Shown: positions 1,043 through 9,120 of the stretch, piece after piece
Numbering within the stretch: the first letter of the stretch is position 1
Layout of the letters: each line of letters opens with the position of its first letter
IMG/VR virus record: IMGVR_UViG_2609459864_000003
Location: 1 to 9,527 of that record
Strand: one strand, 5' to 3'
Source of the DNA: a virus
Taxonomy: Duplodnaviria; Heunggongvirae; Uroviricota; Caudoviricetes
Length of the DNA: 9,527 bases
Notes under the pieces: generated by a model
Seen by the model: only the letters and a program-made list of their open reading frames with translations
Told to the model about the DNA's origin: nothing
Database searches by the model: none
Translations under genes and position numbers: made by a program

Positions 1043-4000
1043 TCAGCTGATACTGATGCCTGCGGTGGCTTTCTTCATCACCACAACCAGCAAATCGCTG
1101 ATACTTGCTGTGGGATACCAGTTATTCACCAGCCATGCTGACACCGAAAACTCCAGTGTCATGTGACCGTGACCGGCAGGCATATCAATAACACCACTGT
1201 AAATCAGCGTATTATCCAGCGCGGTACGGTTATAAATTTCAGCACCGTTTTTCCGCACTATCAGACGGCATGAGGAGTAAATATCAGTATGCTCTTTCTC
1301 ATGTTTAGCGCCGCTGAATGCCACCGCCGGAATAACAATCTGCCGGTCAAACGGCTGATCGTCATAAACCCTGACGGTAATGGTCCCTGATGGCCACCGC
1401 TCCGGTGCACGGGAGTCCCGGGGGAAAGCTTTGCCCACTGTTTTAACGAGATCGCCTTCAATCTGGTTGGCGGACAGTTTTCCCAGAACCCGACAGTTTT
1501 CGTTAATCGTGACGTTGTTGAGCGTCCCGGAGTTCGCATTCACGTTACCGCTGATATCGGCATTTTTCGCCGTCAGCCGCCCGTCCGGTGTCAGGGAAAA
1601 TGCCGGAGGATTACCGCCGCTGGTAATGGTGGGAGCCGTCAGGTATTTCAGGAACACTTCGTTCATGAATATCTGATCGCCCTGACCAACAAACATCGGC
1701 TTTGTGTTGCCATTCGCAGGATTAATCATCGCAATCCGGTCAGCAGCCAGAAGCACCTGACTCTGCATACCTGCTGGCGTATTCTCAATACCGGCTCCGA
1801 TACCCGCAATATAAAGGCGTCCGTCCTTCATCTGCTGCAGTTTCACGGCCCACATGCTGTTCAGGTTATTATTTGTATCAACCTGAACTTTCTGTATCTG
1901 CTGGATTGCCGCACTCTGATTTTCCAGTTTTTTATTGACGGTCTGCGTGATTTCATTGCTGACATTCGTAATGGACGTCCTGATTTCAGCCAGATCAGGC
2001 GCAAGCTGACCGTTATCAATCTGTGTCCACAACTCCTGAGCCAGATGGGTTTTCCCTATCTCTCCTTTGAAAAAATCCAGATAGCCGGATGCATCATCAC
2101 TCGGCTGGCCAACAGCCTCCACAAATGCCGATTTGCCAACAGTATTCACACTGCGGATATAAAAATAATAATCATGGCCCGGTTTGATATTGATACTGGC
2201 AGCTATCCAGTACAGCGCCGAGCCAAGATAGCGGGCTGCGGTTTCAACCTGCCTGATATCCGCAATCCGCTTTTCCGAGAACCAGAACTCAAACTGTACC
2301 GTCGGGTCATAAACGGCAAGATGCGGCGTGGCGGGTATCTGAAAATAGCCCGGCGTCAGCTCAATCCGCGACGGTGCTGCCGGTGCGGCAATCCGGAAGG
2401 TGGTGGTGGCAGGTTCACCCTGCTGGCCATAGCTGTTTATCGCCCGCACCGTCAGGGTGTATTCCCCGAGCGGCAGGCCGCTGAAACGGTGCTCCGTGTC
2501 TGCGGTGATGGCGGTGGTCACCAGTCTGGCATCCGTTCCCTTACCACTGGTCAGGCGCAGACTGAAGCGCACACCCTTCACCACCCGCGGCGTGTCCCAT
2601 TTCGCCTGCGCCAGATACTGGCCGTCAGCTGCGCTCACCTCCACCGTCAGGTGCTGCACTGCCGGTGGGATGACGCTGTTCAGGGAACCTGACTGCGGCT
2701 CAAAGCGGGCACCGTTATCCACGATGGCTTCTTTTTCCGGTACGTGCTGCACCGCCGTGATGGCAAAGGTGCCGTCCGTGTTTTCCCGGATGGAGACACA
2801 GCGGAACAGGCGACGGCGCAGTGACGGCAGGGAGAGTCCCCACACCCCGTATGTCTCCACACCATCAGGCAGGGTACTGACCTGTATCCGGTCCGGCGCG
2901 GGGTGTTCGGTGATGTCCACACTCACCGGCTTACCGCTGCCGTTAATCAGGTTCACCGTGGCGGCACCGGTCTCCGGAAGTGTCACTTCACGGTCCAGCG
3001 TCAGGGTGCGGGTGGCAGCATCAATGGACAGGACACGTCCGCCGGTCAGAGTCCCGGCATAGTCGTTATCACAGATTTCAATGATGTCACCGGGTGTGTG
3101 CCGCAGCCCCTGAGACCCGAGCGTGAAATCCACCGTCTGCGTTTCCAGCAGTTCGGTCTTTATCACCCACAGTCCGGCACGGTGGGCCTGACCGCGGCTG
3201 GTACAGCCGAACGCGTCCATCTTCAGCAGGTTGCGTCCGTAGCGCAGTATGGCTTCCGGGTCTTCCACCAGTTCCGTGGAGGTCTGCCAGCCGTTCTGCG
3301 GGTCGGTGTAATTCACCTCCACCGCCGTGTGCCGGTCCTTCAGGGCACTGAAGCTGTAGCGGAATCCCACGCCGTTATCATCCACCACCACATCGCTGTT
3401 GGTGTACGGCCACACCACATCCGACGGGCGGTCCTGAACGAACGTCAGCGTCTGACCGTTCCATACCGGCATACAGCGCATCGCAGAGCAGAAATCACTG
3501 AGAACGTCCCACGCCTTACGCTGTTGTGCCAGGTACGCATTAAAGGTCATCCGCGGCTCTGTCCCCCCGAAACCATCCGGGACCGTCTGGTCGCAGTACT
3601 GCCCGATGGCATACAGCGCCCACTTGTCCACATCCGCCGCCCCCAGACGTTTTCCCATGCCGTAGCGCGGGTGAGTCAGCATGTCCCACAGGCACCAGGC
3701 CGGGTTGTTGCTGTATGCCGGTTTCAGACTGCCGTCCCAGATACCACTGTACGTGCGTTTTTCCGGGTCATAGTTTGACGGCACCTGGATGATGCGACCG
3801 CGGATATGGTAGTTCACCGTCATCTGCTGGCCGCCGAACTGCTCCGCATCCACCTGCAGCCCCACAATGGCCGTGTTCGGGTAATCGAGGCTGAGGGCTT
3901 TCTTAATCTCGTATCCGTGTCTGCGGTAGCACTGAATTAGCCACTCGGCCTGTTCTTCAGTGCATGGGGGATGCTGGAACCAGTCAGATTTGAAAGTGCG

Positions 4001-4072
4001 GGAACGCCGCCCGTGCCTGCTGGCAGGGGCGGCAGAGTTATCCGAATTGTAAAATTTGGTATCGTGCGCCAT
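1043..4072 (-). CDS. J: tail-tip host specificity protein J, N-terminally truncated fragment
   Basis: The track ORF 1043..4201 aligns by eye with lambda J from about ORF residue 107 ([20 protein letters not shown]... versus lambda KQCYPNTALVGVQVDSEQFGSQQ...) through the C-terminus, including the conserved [13 protein letters not shown] and [30 protein letters not shown] blocks. The first ~106 residues do not resemble J. The hok terminator lies at 4141-4170, so I place the plausible start at the internal ATG 4070-4072 ([10 protein letters not shown]...). Roughly 200 N-terminal residues of a full-length J and all upstream tail genes are absent. Confidence 0.85.
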
Positions 4073-4140
4073 CTGTTTTCTCTGCTGGCGCAGCAGGTGC
4101 CAGTTGTTCAGGCTGACGGATGGATTGTAAACCAGAACGA

Positions 4141-4170
4141 CCAGAAAAAACAAAACCCGCCGAAGCGGGT
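4141..4170 (-). terminator. hok mRNA intrinsic terminator
   Basis: Stem aacccgc (4153-4159) / gcgggtt (4164-4170) with a 4-nt loop, followed on the minus strand by UUUUGUUUUUUCUGG (plus 4141-4152). Lies about 70 nt downstream of the hok stop. Confidence 0.6.
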
Positions 4171-4239
4171 TAAGTGCGGGTGCGTTGAGGATGCCTGACA
4201 CATCAGCGGTGGCGAGGGATTTCTCCCCCGCCGGGTCTC

Positions 4240-4395
4240 TTACTCCTCAGGTTCGTAAGCTGTGAAGACAGCGACCTCCGTCTGGCCGGTTCGGATTCGT
4301 ACCTCGCAGAGGTCTTTCCTCGTTACCAGTGCCGTCACTATGACGGTTAAACAGATGACGATCAGGGCGATTAACATCGCCTTTTGCTGCTTCAT
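4240..4395 (-). CDS. hok: Hok/Gef family type I toxin (51 aa; HokD/RelF-like or HokC/Gef-like)
   Basis: My own translation of the minus strand gives [51 protein letters not shown]: a single transmembrane helix plus the conserved RKDLCE and VAVF(T/M)AYE motifs of Hok/Gef proteins. SD ggaga lies upstream of the ATG at 4393-4395. Below the 60-aa cutoff of the ORF track. Confidence 0.93.
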
Positions 4396-4451
4396 AGCCT
4401 GCTTCTCCTTGACCTTTCGGTCCGTAAGAGGCTAATCTCTATGTGTCGCAT
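4392..4451 (-). CDS. mok: mok-like leader ORF (19 codons) translationally coupled to hok
   Basis: Minus-strand ATG at 4449-4451 opens [19 protein letters not shown]; its stop TGA overlaps the hok ATG (AUGA). The position matches the mok reading frame of plasmid R1 hok/sok, though it is much shorter here. Confidence 0.4.
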   Translation of the reverse strand: MRHIEISLLRTERSRRSRL

Positions 4452-4510
4452 AGATATGGCCTCAGATTAATGTTAAGCGTCTTGCAGGACGCGTAATGTT
4501 AACTGGGGCT
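4440..4510 (+). ncRNA. sok: putative Sok-like antisense RNA; ends approximate
   Basis: Plus-strand promoter-like hexamers TTGACC (4409-4414) and TAATCT (4433-4438) with an 18-bp spacer, pointing opposite to hok. The transcript would be antisense to the mok start region of the hok leader, as in known hok/sok loci. A hairpin gcgtct-tgca-ggacgc sits at 4478-4493. Exact 5' and 3' ends cannot be fixed from sequence. Confidence 0.35.
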
Positions 4511-4570
4511 TTTCTCTATCTGCCTTTTGGTGTTCATGCCTGAGACAGATAGCCTCAAGCACCCGCAGTC

Positions 4571-5761: not shown

Positions 5762-6118
5762 TTATTCAGTTCTGGATTTTGTCGCCCTGCGTATCCGCGC
5801 TTTCGCGTTACGCTCAATCTGAATTAGCTTTTCTATATTTTTTCGCCTTTCCCGCTCCTCCTGGCGCAAGTGCCTTACATCATCTGCCAGTCTGGTTTCT
5901 CTTTTCGCCACAGAGAGCATCCAGTCAAATGGTTCCACAACTGCACCGCAGATTTTACAGCGGACCTGACGCTCTTTTTCGTCAACCCGGACAGAGGCGT
6001 GATGACAATATGGTCTTTCCGATGGCTCATAAAGAAAATTAACCTGATTACGAGGGTCATCCTCTTTTACCGGAAATAAAACGATATTGCTTAACTCATC
6101 CTCTGGTTTTATTTCCAT
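5762..6118 (-). CDS. hypothetical protein with putative zinc-ribbon (C-HH ... C-x2-C) and basic coiled-coil C-terminus (118 aa)
   Basis: Internal ATG 6116-6118 of track ORF 5762..6175 has SD aaggagagg; the track start at 6175 is a GTG inside the upstream scar. Product MEIKPEDELSNIVLFPVKEDD...PYCHHASVRVDEKERQVRCKICGAVV... followed by an R/K/E-rich tail. Confidence 0.6.
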   Translation of the reverse strand: MEIKPEDELSNIVLFPVKEDDPRNQVNFLYEPSERPYCHHASVRVDEKERQVRCKICGAVVEPFDWMLSVAKRETRLADDVRHLRQEERERRKNIEKLIQIERNAKARIRRATKSRTE

Positions 6119-6239
6119 GCTCCTCTCCTTTGATGCGAATGCCAGCGGTAATTGAAGCCTGATAGCTAATTTCACTCACAGTACCGCCTCCTGAAAATTT
6201 AATGAACAATTCAATACGTTCTTTGGTAATAGTGGTCAT
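6096..6239 (-). pseudogene. deletion scar: chimeric 47-codon ORF built from gene-start and gene-end fragments
   Basis: ATG 6237-6239 with SD aaggag. Product MTTITKERIELFIKFSGGG-TVSEISYQASITAGIRIKGE-EHGNKTRG. Its first codons match the start of the 135-aa gene at 6922 (MITITKG...). An internal aggaggcggtact-GTG-agtgaaattagctatcag copies the RBS and start of the ea22-like gene at 8185, fused directly to a copy of the ea22-like 3' end (AGIRIKGE). Confidence 0.4.
6123..6148. repeat. 26-bp gene-boundary repeat, copy 1 (ctctcctttgatgcgaatgccagcgg)
   Basis: Exact 26-nt identity with 7438-7463. Here it lies inside the scar, read in a different frame relative to the next start codon because of a 1-nt indel just outside the repeat. 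Confidence 0.8.
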
Positions 6240-6249
6240 GTGTTACTCC

Positions 6250-6513
6250 TTAACCCGCAGTGCTTTCAACTGATGAGGGGAACAAAATCTTTTCATCAAA
6301 CCCTGCATTCATATCATGAACAGCAACACACCAATCCATCGACGAACGATTATCAAGAGCCTCCATGATTTCATCCATGCGGCGCAGGTCATACAGGTAA
6401 ATGCTTTTATCGCCAATGGTGTAAAAACCAATTTTTTTCGGTGATGGGCAGCGATCAAGAACGTCCTGTAATTCGTTCAACCATGCCCGTTCTTTTTTTG
6501 TTAAAGTTGCCAT
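6250..6513 (-). CDS. hypothetical protein (87 aa)
   Basis: Internal ATG 6511-6513 of track ORF 6250..6573, preceded by SD aaggagag within the conserved junction gccatatcactctccttt (6509-6526). Product MATLTKKERAWLNELQDVLDRCPSPKKIGFYTIGDKSIYLYDLRRMDEIMEALDNRSSMDWCVAVHDMNAGFDEKILFPSSVESTAG. Confidence 0.6.
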   Translation of the reverse strand: MATLTKKERAWLNELQDVLDRCPSPKKIGFYTIGDKSIYLYDLRRMDEIMEALDNRSSMDWCVAVHDMNAGFDEKILFPSSVESTAG

Positions 6514-6514
6514 A

Positions 6515-6922
6515 TCACTCTCCTTTCCCATGAAGCATAGCGGCGCGGCAGGCGTTCCATATTTCGGCAGCAATATCGCGCTCGCTATCGGTTAATTTGT
6601 ACGTGGAAACATAGCCAGAGAGCATTTCTACGTTTTCCGGAGTTGCTTCTTCCGGCACTATCGGCGCTGGAGGGGCGGCAAATAGATATCCGCCAAAGTC
6701 AGGAAGCTCTCCAATGGCCTGTACGAACTTTTGTTTGCCTACGTCAACTCCTAATGGGTAATGAGCTATAATCTTTGCCACCGGCTCTGCTTCCAGCGAT
6801 ACCAGTGCAATTCGTGCCAGTTCTTCCGCTTCTTCTGCTGGCAGTACAACGTTGCTACCCGGTCCGTATGTTTCGCGCCACTGCTTGATTGTCAGCAGTC
6901 GCCCTTTGGTAATAGTGATCAT
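6515..6922 (-). CDS. hypothetical protein (135 aa)
   Basis: Track ORF; the start ATG overlaps the stop of the upstream nuclease gene (ATGA at 6919-6922); SD aaggaa. No motif I can recognise. Confidence 0.7.
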   Translation of the reverse strand: MITITKGRLLTIKQWRETYGPGSNVVLPAEEAEELARIALVSLEAEPVAKIIAHYPLGVDVGKQKFVQAIGELPDFGGYLFAAPPAPIVPEEATPENVEMLSGYVSTYKLTDSERDIAAEIWNACRAAMLHGKGE

Positions 6923-7434
6923 GCCGCGTTTCCTTCTTTCTTATTAACAATCACACCGTCATATATTTCATTAAGGTGCCCTCTCAACTCCATGCGCCTT
7001 AATGCAGATAACATGTAATCGCATTCAACCTGCTTATTCCCAGTAAATGGCTTATCGTCAGGATTACCCCAACAGCAATTACCCCTGGGCCATCCATGTA
7101 CTTTCCGTACTCTTCCGTTAACAACGTGAAGTAATCCCCAGCCGGGAGGTAAATCCTCAACTGAAATAATTTCCGGCTCACTAATAAAGAATCGCCAGTC
7201 GCCCATGCCAAGTGAGGGATTTTTACGGAAACGCTTTTTTCTATCTGCCAACAAGTCAGCACGAGAACACTTCGCCTCTATCAGGCATGATGCTGAATTT
7301 CTGAATCCCATAGCATCTGGCTGTTCTCCGGTACTGGTTACAGCAACAAAGCGGTCATGAAAGCAAACCTTGAACCCGTTGCGCTTAAGGAACTTGTACG
7401 CAATCTGACAGAGTTCGCGGTGTGTTAACGCCAT
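6919..7434 (-). CDS. putative PD-(D/E)XK-type nuclease (171 aa; VRR-NUC / MmcB-like motif arrangement)
   Basis: Track ORF with SD aaggagag. The product contains ...VAVTSTGEQPDAMGF(x9)CLIEAKCSRADL...: an acidic residue, a PD dipeptide and an E-x-K triad at the spacing typical of restriction-endonuclease-fold nucleases. Family assignment is from motif only. Confidence 0.7.
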   Translation of the reverse strand: MALTHRELCQIAYKFLKRNGFKVCFHDRFVAVTSTGEQPDAMGFRNSASCLIEAKCSRADLLADRKKRFRKNPSLGMGDWRFFISEPEIISVEDLPPGWGLLHVVNGRVRKVHGWPRGNCCWGNPDDKPFTGNKQVECDYMLSALRRMELRGHLNEIYDGVIVNKKEGNAA

Positions 7435-7435
7435 A

Positions 7436-8185
7436 TCACTCTCCTTTGATGCGAATGCCAGCGGCGCGGATTGCAGCGATGACTTCAGAAACTTTGTATG
7501 CCATTACCGTTTGGTAATCATCGTGAAAATCTGTTCGATGAAGCATGCTGCTACGTTCCGGGAGCGATATTTCCCGAGCATCCAGTTCCTTAACGCGTTC
7601 CTCCAGTTCGTAGACCCTGCATTGTTCTCTATCATCAATCAGATATAACCCAAGACATTCGCTTTCTACCCAACCGCCAAAATCATGATCGTAACGCTCA
7701 CATGAAAACTCACCGTCACCGTCCTTTGTTGGAATGGTGTAACTATCTAATGGGCCACCATATGTCGGCACATTCCCCAATGTTGGATGCTCAATCCACA
7801 TGAAAAATGCACGTCCGGTTATTGGGCAAATATCTGGCCGCCATTGGTTACGAACAGCCTTGGTTTCGGATAATTCTTCAGCGTGTTGTTTTACTTCCTC
7901 AAGCTCAACTCTCAGCTTCCCTACCGTTAGCGCAATATCCTCGTTCTCCTGGTCGCGGCGTTTGATGTATTGCTGGTTCCTTTCCCGTTCATCCAGTAGT
8001 GCCAGCACGGTTTCTGGTCCGGTCAGAAATTTGAAGGCATTGAGCGCATCAATATCCACACCGTAATCTTTAAGTTCCTGTTCACTTAACAAATCATCAT
8101 CAGTTGGCAACATTAACAGGCGTTCCATTGCTGGAATTGCACGTTCTGCTGCCTCACGCAGTGCCTGGTAATTAATTTCGCTCAC
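7436..8185 (-). CDS. Ead/Ea22-like family protein (249 aa)
   Basis: GTG start 8183-8185 preceded by a strong SD aaaggagg; the track's longer ORF to 8368 has no better start. N-terminus VSEINYQALREAAERAIPAMERLL...ETVLALLDERERNQQYI... matches the pattern I recall for Ead/Ea22-like prophage proteins. Central coiled-coil, cysteine-rich C-terminal half. Confidence 0.7.
   Translation of the reverse strand: MSEINYQALREAAERAIPAMERLLMLPTDDDLLSEQELKDYGVDIDALNAFKFLTGPETVLALLDERERNQQYIKRRDQENEDIALTVGKLRVELEEVKQHAEELSETKAVRNQWRPDICPITGRAFFMWIEHPTLGNVPTYGGPLDSYTIPTKDGDGEFSCERYDHDFGGWVESECLGLYLIDDREQCRVYELEERVKELDAREISLPERSSMLHRTDFHDDYQTVMAYKVSEVIAAIRAAGIRIKGE
7438..7463. repeat. 26-bp gene-boundary repeat, copy 2
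   Basis: Identical to 6123-6148. Here it encodes the C-terminus AGIRIKGE of the ea22-like protein plus the SD of the downstream nuclease gene. The overlapping 18-mer gccatatcactctccttt (7430-7447) recurs at 6509-6526. Confidence 0.8.
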
Positions 8186-8352
8186 TGGTTGCCTCCTTTG
8201 CGAAGCTCTGCGGCTAAATACTCCAACGCCATTATGTGGCGTGTTCCCCAACCAGGACGGTACGTTCACCGCGATGACGTATACCAAAAGCAAAACGTTT
8301 AAAACCGAAAATGGTGCCCGTCGCTGGCTGGAAAGAAACTCAGGTGAGTGAT

Positions 8353-9067: not shown

Positions 9068-9120
9068 TTTCTGGTGACGTTTGGCGGTATCAGTTTTACT
9101 CCGTGACTGCTCTGCCGCCC
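9068..9120 (+). ncRNA. dicF: DicF small regulatory RNA (53 nt; ftsZ-targeting sRNA of Qin-type prophages)
   Basis: tttctggtgacgtttggcggtatcagttttactccgtgactgctctgccgccc matches the DicF sequence as I remember it, followed by a T5 run (9121-9125). It is embedded in an ORF-free, hairpin-rich region between ydfC and dicB, exactly as in K-12. Confidence 0.8.

Follow-up and report, generated by a model that had tools for sequence, protein, structure and literature searches.

A short open reading frame in the accessory region of a Qin-like lambdoid prophage is probably a passive compound recombination scar of ea22-like, DUF977 and DUF551-family gene ends

Phage operons contain translationally coupled, overlapping cistrons, with ATGA or GTGA overlaps between neighbours. 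The novel joints and mosaic boundaries of lambdoid phages are said, in Hendrix's model and by Juhala et al. in 2000, to come from illegitimate or relaxed homologous recombination. Lambdoid mosaicism through recombination of this kind is established, and Red and Rad52-like recombinases act on diverged or very short homologies (PMC2327257, PMC3945230). The lambda Ea22 protein is pro-lysogenic, and the ea22 genes are mosaic as well, combining a shared N-terminal segment and a coiled coil with interchangeable C-terminal domains (PMC7093339, PMC10834534).

The window analysed here, that is, the whole stretch of DNA with its 9,527 nt, is a heavily deleted Qin-like lambdoid prophage carrying hokD and sok, DicF, ydfC-like genes and a truncated tail-tip gene J followed by lom. 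The hokD gene (4240-4395) stands beside the sok antitoxin RNA (4393-4564, minus strand; Rfam, 106.7 bits), and the DicF RNA is found at 9069-9120 on the plus strand (Rfam, 76.7 bits); the two Rfam matches fit a Qin-type cryptic prophage. Within a run of small accessory genes on the minus strand lies a 47-codon ORF (6239..6096, minus strand) with the product MTTITKERIELFIKFSGGGTVSEISYQASITAGIRIKGEEHGNKTRG. In complete relatives (loci L001, L006 and L138) this run is located 3' of the replication genes and DUF977, and 5' of hokD, DUF968, rusA and the antiterminator. PGAP (RefSeq) names the 47-codon ORF hypothetical protein WP_000207966.1 in these three loci; in the literature we found no description of the ORF or of the DUF551::DUF977 joint inside it.

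The tail-tip gene J is present as a 1052-aa ORF (1043-4201, minus strand) that has lost its own 5' end, with lom at 376-975. The start of the J ORF consists of sequence usually found downstream of hokD, and relatives of the nin region match the window from 3882, placing the junction near there. The sequence suggests that a large deletion took DUF968, rusA and Q, the lysis and head genes, and most tail genes. Complete relatives of the L138 type match the window only downstream of TAATGGCGTTGGAG, at about 8232 (region 8232-8330, minus strand); this limit is reached within the 3' end of the ea22-like gene upstream, and beyond it are ydfB/ydfC-like genes and DicF on the opposite strand. The immunity and replication block, with repressor/cro-like genes, YdaT, a replication gene, DUF977, a methyltransferase and two ea22-like genes, appears to have been deleted.

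The part of the ORF that we call the remnant resembles the Ead/Ea22 family (PF13935) in keeping the start (VSEI-YQA) and one common C-terminal end (AGIRIKGE) of these proteins, and intact members occur both in the window (7436-8185) and, in other genomes, at the position of the remnant itself. Unlike the family, it has just 8+8 codons, with neither the coiled coil nor the C-terminal domain nor a match to the family model, and unlike lambda ea22, which lies in the exo-xis region, its locus is downstream of the replication genes. As in lambdoid novel joints, exact homology at the junctions amounts to 0-2 nt and surviving recombinants disrupt dispensable accessory genes only; as at lambdoid mosaic boundaries, short stop/Shine-Dalgarno/start cassettes recur at several junctions. 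However, whereas lambdoid boundaries fall at gene edges, the joints of this scar lie a few codons inside genes, leaving readable stubs of three genes in one annotated ORF. Like coupled cistrons, the remnant has a GTGA overlap with DUF977 and overlaps the next gene by 23 nt (sister scars leave a 1-nt gap), but its stop position varies between alleles, and coupling here is at most putative.

As the in-window reference for the 5' and 3' ends of ea22 we used the intact 249-aa ea22-like paralogue (7436..8185, minus strand), annotated as ead/Ea22-like family protein WP_001289900.1 and matching Pfam PF13935 (Ead_Ea22) with E = 3e-29 and 102.7 bits. Positions 6123-6146 are identical to 7439-7462, in the 3' end of this gene, at 24/24 nucleotides (43 nt at 81% when extended), and 6157-6179, with the GTG at 6179-6177, match its start (8163-8185) at 19 of 23 positions. 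Two ea22 end patterns were tested on 200 shuffles of the window that preserved dinucleotides, and not one shuffle contained either pattern twice. The 47-aa product as such had no Pfam match at E <= 0.01 (the cut-off is 27 bits, and its 249-aa neighbour reaches 102.7), and it falls short of the PF13935 gathering score. The Ead/Ea22 start (V/M)SEINYQALREAAE, continuous with a coiled coil in the family, is represented by just VSEISYQA, followed by the C-terminal end. Nor does the product belong to DUF551 (PF04448), of which it has the first 14 codons only, the domain occupying residues 120-187 of the intact L135 protein, or to DUF977 (PF06163), of which it has only the last 24 nt in another frame.

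Compared piece by piece, the ORF resolves by homology into a DUF551 5' end, a DUF977 tail, an ea22 start, an 11-nt island and an ea22 3' end. Piece 1 (6198..6239, minus strand) corresponds to the first 14 codons (42 nt, MTTITKERIELFIK) of a DUF551-family gene and recurs unchanged at the start of uninterrupted ORFs of 289 aa and 300 aa (L004, L134) that have a DUF551-type C-terminus; identity between the window and L004 stops after TTCATTAAA at 6198. Six nucleotides before the ATG of the ORF stands the Shine-Dalgarno sequence AAGGAG (6246..6251, minus strand), which overlaps the TAA (6252-6250) of an 87-aa gene. The same AAGGAG sequence is found 5' of intact DUF551-family genes in L004 and L135, and this former DUF551-family signal now serves the 47-codon ORF. 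Piece 2 (6176..6199, minus strand) comes from a DUF977 gene, of which it is the final 24 nt (AATTTTCAGGAGGCGGTACTGTGA, encoding NFQEAVL*), and is here read out of frame as FSGGGT. Intact DUF977 genes (L002; Pfam PF06163, E = 3e-29) end in the identical sequence. The piece has a 2-nt 'AA' (6199-6198) in common with piece 1 and holds the AGGAGG Shine-Dalgarno for the ea22 GTG.

Piece 3 (6157..6179, minus strand) is the ea22-like start, a GTG plus seven codons (VSEISYQA), and its GTG overlaps the TGA of DUF977 as GTGA. The same DUF977-GTGA-ea22 layout exists with full-length ea22-like genes in L136 and L137, and it is these alleles overlapping DUF977, not the start of the L003 gene, that piece 3 resembles. 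Piece 4 is an 11-nt island, TTCAATTACCG, at the deletion junction (6146..6156, minus strand). It is identical, out of frame, to codons 95-98 (AREVQLPT; L003 2874-2884) of the syntenic full-length L003 ea22-like gene, and a match of that length arose in 1 of 2000 shuffles of the interior of the L003 gene; the island could be a kept piece from a complex deletion or a templated insertion. Piece 5 (6123..6147, minus strand), the ea22-like 3' end (AGIRIKGE), has 'CG' (6147-6146) in common with the island and includes, within the remnant, the AAGGAG of the next gene (6130-6125). From piece 5 on, the window and the L003 ea22 3' end with its downstream gene agree at 321 of 325 positions, and the ORF closes (6096..6122, minus strand) with EHGNKTRG*, the tail natural to ea22-like proteins of the L003 type. 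In L003 and L004, where the full-length protein of this kind has 153 aa and its gene stands before the same 118-aa gene, AGIRIKGEEHGNKTRG forms its end and the same 23-nt overlap is annotated. The junction in the product of the 47-codon ORF reads SGGGTVSEISYQASIT.

The first-pass annotation of this segment had read it as the first eight and last eight codons of an ea22-like gene joined together, and the matches to the 249-aa paralogue bear this out. Its view of the segment as a remnant in which these ends meet holds, but a simple two-end fusion, with the ends joined directly, is not what we find, because the island lies in between. It had also derived the upstream part from seven codons related to the start of the 135-aa ORF; the relationship is real (6221-6240 and 6904-6923 match at 19 of 20 positions), but the upstream piece comprises 14 codons (42 nt) and belongs to a DUF551-family gene of 289-300 aa. 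The ribosome-binding site before the ea22 GTG was correctly recognised as well (AGGAGG), but it had been overlooked that this signal lies in the last 24 nt of a DUF977 gene whose TGA overlaps the GTG.

The gene downstream of the ORF encodes a 118-aa protein of the WP_000403778 family (5762..6118, minus strand; annotated by PGAP in L001 and L006). Its ATG, at 6118-6116, lies within the 47-codon ORF, giving the 23-nt overlap. The product has a weak match to Pfam Zn_Ribbon_TF (E = 1.6e-4, below the curated cut-off) and contains two CxxC-like pairs. Between diverged alleles, codon positions 1+2 are 98-99% identical and position 3 87-92%, and the gene is evidently under strong purifying selection. 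Some match to its 5' neighbourhood was present in 2460 of 5426 E. coli genomes.

The scar evolves differently from this neighbour. Between the window and L133, the 118-aa gene is identical at 233/236 of codon positions 1+2 and at 104/118 of position 3, and the scar at 43/57 nucleotides, with just 8/18 in its middle 18 nt; these differences spare the start region and the Shine-Dalgarno. The junction codon encodes T, A, S or V, and the ORF ends after 19, 27, 38, 40 or 88 codons, depending on the allele. In O157:H7 EDL933 (L005, 2521-2640) the scar has suffered a 1-nt deletion and the next gene is a 194-aa DUF551 gene, not the 118-aa gene; sampled O157:H7 genomes gave the same one-base-shorter match. 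In the shifted frame of EDL933, the GTG runs without a stop into the DUF551 ATG (VSELAIRLQLSLAFASKENE-MTTF...). Since the middle of the scar diverges faster than the silent sites of its neighbour and the O157:H7 copies are frameshifted, the remnant is evidently not a conserved peptide; with its ends variable as well, its product shows no purifying selection in these comparisons. Outside the 23-mer, the common scar type has pi = 0.016, as low as positions 1+2 of the neighbour, in loci that were chosen by the exact adjacent 23-mer and over a stretch that includes the ribosome-binding site. The in-frame types of 19 codons, the good translation signals and the occurrence of the exact 47-aa sequence on 1000 contigs or more would agree with a degree of selection for a translatable frame.

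A sister scar gives the clearest view of how an ea22-like gene was lost. In L133 it lies between a DUF4406-type gene and the 118-aa gene (VSEINYQALRVAGICIKGE), a place occupied in L003 by the full 153-aa ea22-like gene. The flanks of the two loci are 92-93% identical, and their sole difference is one in-frame gap of 378 nt, bounded by 'ALR' codon triplets near both gene ends (an imperfect 10-nt 'ALR' repeat). The ALRVAGI of L133 differs from L003 at synonymous positions only. Intact syntenic homologues with collinear ends are thus at hand for the remnant, in 643 genomes and in L003 and L004, in the pair L133 and L003, and in L136 and L137. The scar core has 19 codons (27 with the tail), and the three sequence types of the scar (the window type, L130/L131 and L133) all have exactly 19 codons, in frame; L130 and L131 have the appearance of intermediates between, or hybrids of, the window and L133 types.

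The 11-nt island indicates that the common scar is not a simple two-end fusion; two breakpoints, or several deletions in succession, would have produced it, possibly with two different ea22 genes as partners. Its parent would be a full-length ea22-like gene that starts GTGAGTGAAATTAGCTATCAGGC and contains GTTCAATTACCG. Searching IMG/VR with the exact 5' 23-mer gave at least 119 loci, and among the matches listed there was no full-length parent, all being scars. An 18-mer that begins at the start and reaches into the island, with a differing continuation, gave three unrelated chance matches and no parent; the 3'-end pattern with the island but another upstream sequence gave 0 matches; and the L133-type 3' end retrieved L133 itself only. 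Variable-gap patterns for scars of other lengths gave 0 matches in species-representative genomes and 0 in metagenomes, and in IMG/VR retrieved only L130, L131 and L133. As no parent with the exact 5' end of the scar was found, we infer from these comparisons how large the deletion was and how many steps it took.

To see how these alleles are distributed, we searched the 144-nt ORF against 5426 complete E. coli genomes. The whole ORF (nt 1-144) occurs in 73 of them. The dominant class of matches covers nt 41-144 and lies 3' of an intact DUF977 gene; a further class, nt 93-144, is found behind full-length ea22-like genes, and nt 1-42 alone match where genes with the annotation 'DUF551 domain-containing' begin. 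Of the 5426 genomes, 1259 carry the scar together with the DUF977 tail, at 1335 places, all of them chromosomal, and in most of these carrier genomes an intact DUF977 gene stands directly 5' of the remnant. The undeleted state, an L003-type full-length ea22 gene next to the 118-aa gene, is found in 643 E. coli genomes. The DUF551 fusion is present in 15 of the at least 119 scar loci of IMG/VR, and the 45 nt immediately upstream are the same in all 15; among 50,697 deposited phage genomes, three carry the scar and none the fusion. The exact 47-aa sequence is found on at least 1000 contigs, and the seven copies whose neighbourhood was read (the window, L001, L006 and L138, and the further copies H31, H76 and H77, read one gene to each side) share the same prophage context.

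We consider it likely, with a probability of about 0.8, that the 47-codon ORF is a passive compound recombination scar without a function of its own. In an older step, an ea22-like gene located between DUF977 and the conserved 118-aa gene would have been reduced to its first 8 codons, the 11-nt island and its last 8 codons plus tail, through breakpoints with little or no homology. Its start would still have been a GTG at the DUF977 stop, and the Shine-Dalgarno of the 118-aa gene would still have been aboard. In a younger step, a non-homologous crossover with only 'AA' shared would have linked codon 14 of a DUF551-family gene, belonging to another phage arrangement, to a position 22 nt before the DUF977 stop. 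This would have placed about 3 kb of other cassettes 5' of the scar and brought the DUF551 ATG by chance into frame with the ea22 remnant. Up to and including TTCATTAAA, the window agrees at the joint with the gene of the L004 type, and from AATTTTCAGG on with the DUF977 gene of the L002 type. The fusion carries the DUF977 tail along, which places the ea22 deletion first, in a DUF977-ea22-118aa arrangement, and the DUF551::DUF977 joint later. Complete relatives have an intact DUF977 gene about 3 kb 5' of the scar, and the intervening cassettes are a methyltransferase, several ea22-like genes, the ORFs of 171 aa and 135 aa and the 87-aa gene, as a non-homologous crossover between differently arranged phages should leave them. 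We infer that the breakpoints were joined by illegitimate or microhomology-mediated recombination, and not by exchange between repeated gene-boundary cassettes.

This history departs in several respects from the one proposed in the first-pass annotation. The ea22 deletion had been taken for a local event, but the same remnant recurs in 1259 of the 5426 E. coli genomes, mostly behind intact DUF977; the DUF551 fusion is a separate, later event seen in 73 genomes. The loss had been put at about 700 bp, a figure that finds no support, the only clean pair of states before and after deletion, L003 and L133, differing by 378 nt. Recombination between gene-boundary sequences had been invoked, and the breakpoints instead lie in coding sequence, with at most 2 nt of microhomology or the imperfect 10-nt 'ALR' repeat. 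That annotation had also named an observation that would refute it, a conserved, expressed small protein of exactly this sequence in unrelated prophages; no such case was seen, for the exact sequence is on at least 1000 contigs but the seven copies read have one context.

The persistence of the scar can be understood from its position. It contains the ribosome-binding site of the selected 118-aa gene and abuts the start of that gene, and its clean removal would need a precise deletion; most likely, then, it has been retained, passively, because of the translation signals that it holds for the 118-aa gene. The scar is very probably translated, through AAGGAG and ATG here and through AGGAGG and GTG behind DUF977. 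This translation is most likely incidental and would at most help ribosomes to reach the 118-aa gene.

As the main alternative, it is possible, although we think it rather unlikely, that selection has kept the remnant as a bridge cistron, short but translated, by which the 118-aa gene stays coupled to its upstream neighbour and the transcript is shielded from polarity; with the same reserve, ribosomes that finish the upstream gene may restart at the overlapping GTG (or begin, in the window, at the DUF551 ATG), read 19-47 codons and stop where the 118-aa gene starts or just beyond. The GTGA stop/start overlap with DUF977 and its AGGAGG would suit such a bridge, as would the Shine-Dalgarno and start of the 118-aa gene inside the ORF and a stop that falls 1 nt before a downstream GTG (L130, L131, L133) or 23 nt past the ATG (window). 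The region is also less structured than shuffled sequence (z = +1.5), and the three scar types keep 19 codons in frame, the 11-nt island of the window type still restoring the frame. Yet the position of the stop is not constant (19 to 88 aa, as listed above), the sampled O157:H7 copies are frameshifted and stand 5' of a different gene, and an in-frame outcome in two or three possibly related events is weak statistics (about 1 in 9). In its more specific form, which we regard as improbable, the 19-codon remnant would be a translated adaptor cistron that keeps the 118-aa zinc-ribbon-like gene coupled to any upstream cassette. The scars would then not be inert, their retention in about a quarter of E. 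coli genomes would be accounted for, and the joints would have been filtered for frame, leaving all three types, that with the island included, at 19 codons.

That the 47-aa ORF, or its 27-aa core, is a real small protein born from the scar with a function of its own seems very unlikely to us, even with the PGAP entry WP_000207966.1, an exact sequence on at least 1000 contigs and a strong AAGGAG 6 nt before the ATG in its favour. The same 45 nt upstream of the 15 IMG/VR fusions and the same context of the seven copies attribute that abundance to shared descent; DUF977 sequence read out of frame and a 14-residue stub make up one third of the product, which matches no family or domain, the middle residues of the core are free to vary and the end is variable, and the deposited phage genomes lack the fusion even though three of them carry the scar. 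We give still less credence to the idea that the short ORF is ancestral, an acceptor site for cassettes, with ea22 bodies inserted between its conserved ends and no deletion at all. Conserved 5' and 3' ends are indeed common to ea22-like genes with unrelated middles, and the GIRIKGE end is found even in a non-ea22 ORF, a presumed methyltransferase; but the Ead_Ea22 domain covers about 120 N-terminal residues and is continuous with the conserved start, the island matches the interior of a full-length gene, and the ALRVAGI of L133 differs from L003 by synonymous changes only, as expected of a once-selected coding piece. Least probable of all is a structured or regulatory RNA, which we rejected: no Rfam family falls in the region (the only hits in the window, sok and DicF, lie elsewhere), the fold is weaker than that of shuffled sequence (z = +1.53) and not stable, and the minus strand has no promoter-like or terminator-like site here.

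Related boundary sequences occur at other junctions nearby. A 17-nt cassette, AAGGAGAGTGATATGGC, is found exactly at both 6509-6525 and 7430-7446 (minus strand), two gene junctions, with 0.01 such matches expected by chance; it consists of a gene end (...KGE*), a Shine-Dalgarno and the ATG of the next gene. In other loci a non-ea22 ORF, a presumed methyltransferase gene, ends in TTGIRIKGE. Portable boundary sequences of this type probably guide cassette exchange. The 135-aa (6515-6922) and 171-aa (6919-7434) ORFs, both on the minus strand, are open here, and PGAP calls them 'incomplete' and 'frameshifted' in 99.9%-identical loci. The 135-aa ORF matches the first and internal parts of 190-300-aa DUF551-family proteins (L135, L134) and, without a DUF551 domain, terminates at the boundary cassette with ...HGKGE*, which gives it the look of a further truncation product.

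We regard the probable compound scar described here as a new, well-resolved instance of known lambdoid mosaicism, and not as a new gene, mechanism or system. For annotation, this means that WP_000207966.1 and its 40-aa relatives, listed as 'hypothetical protein' on thousands of contigs, are best read as recombination joints. The locus is an unusually legible case of the rebuilding of a lambdoid accessory region, in which two nested joints, their relative ages and the surviving translation signals can all be read, and both the deleted and the undeleted alleles are present at high frequency within one species. The DUF551::DUF977 joint is the mark of a single event and could serve to follow one prophage lineage.
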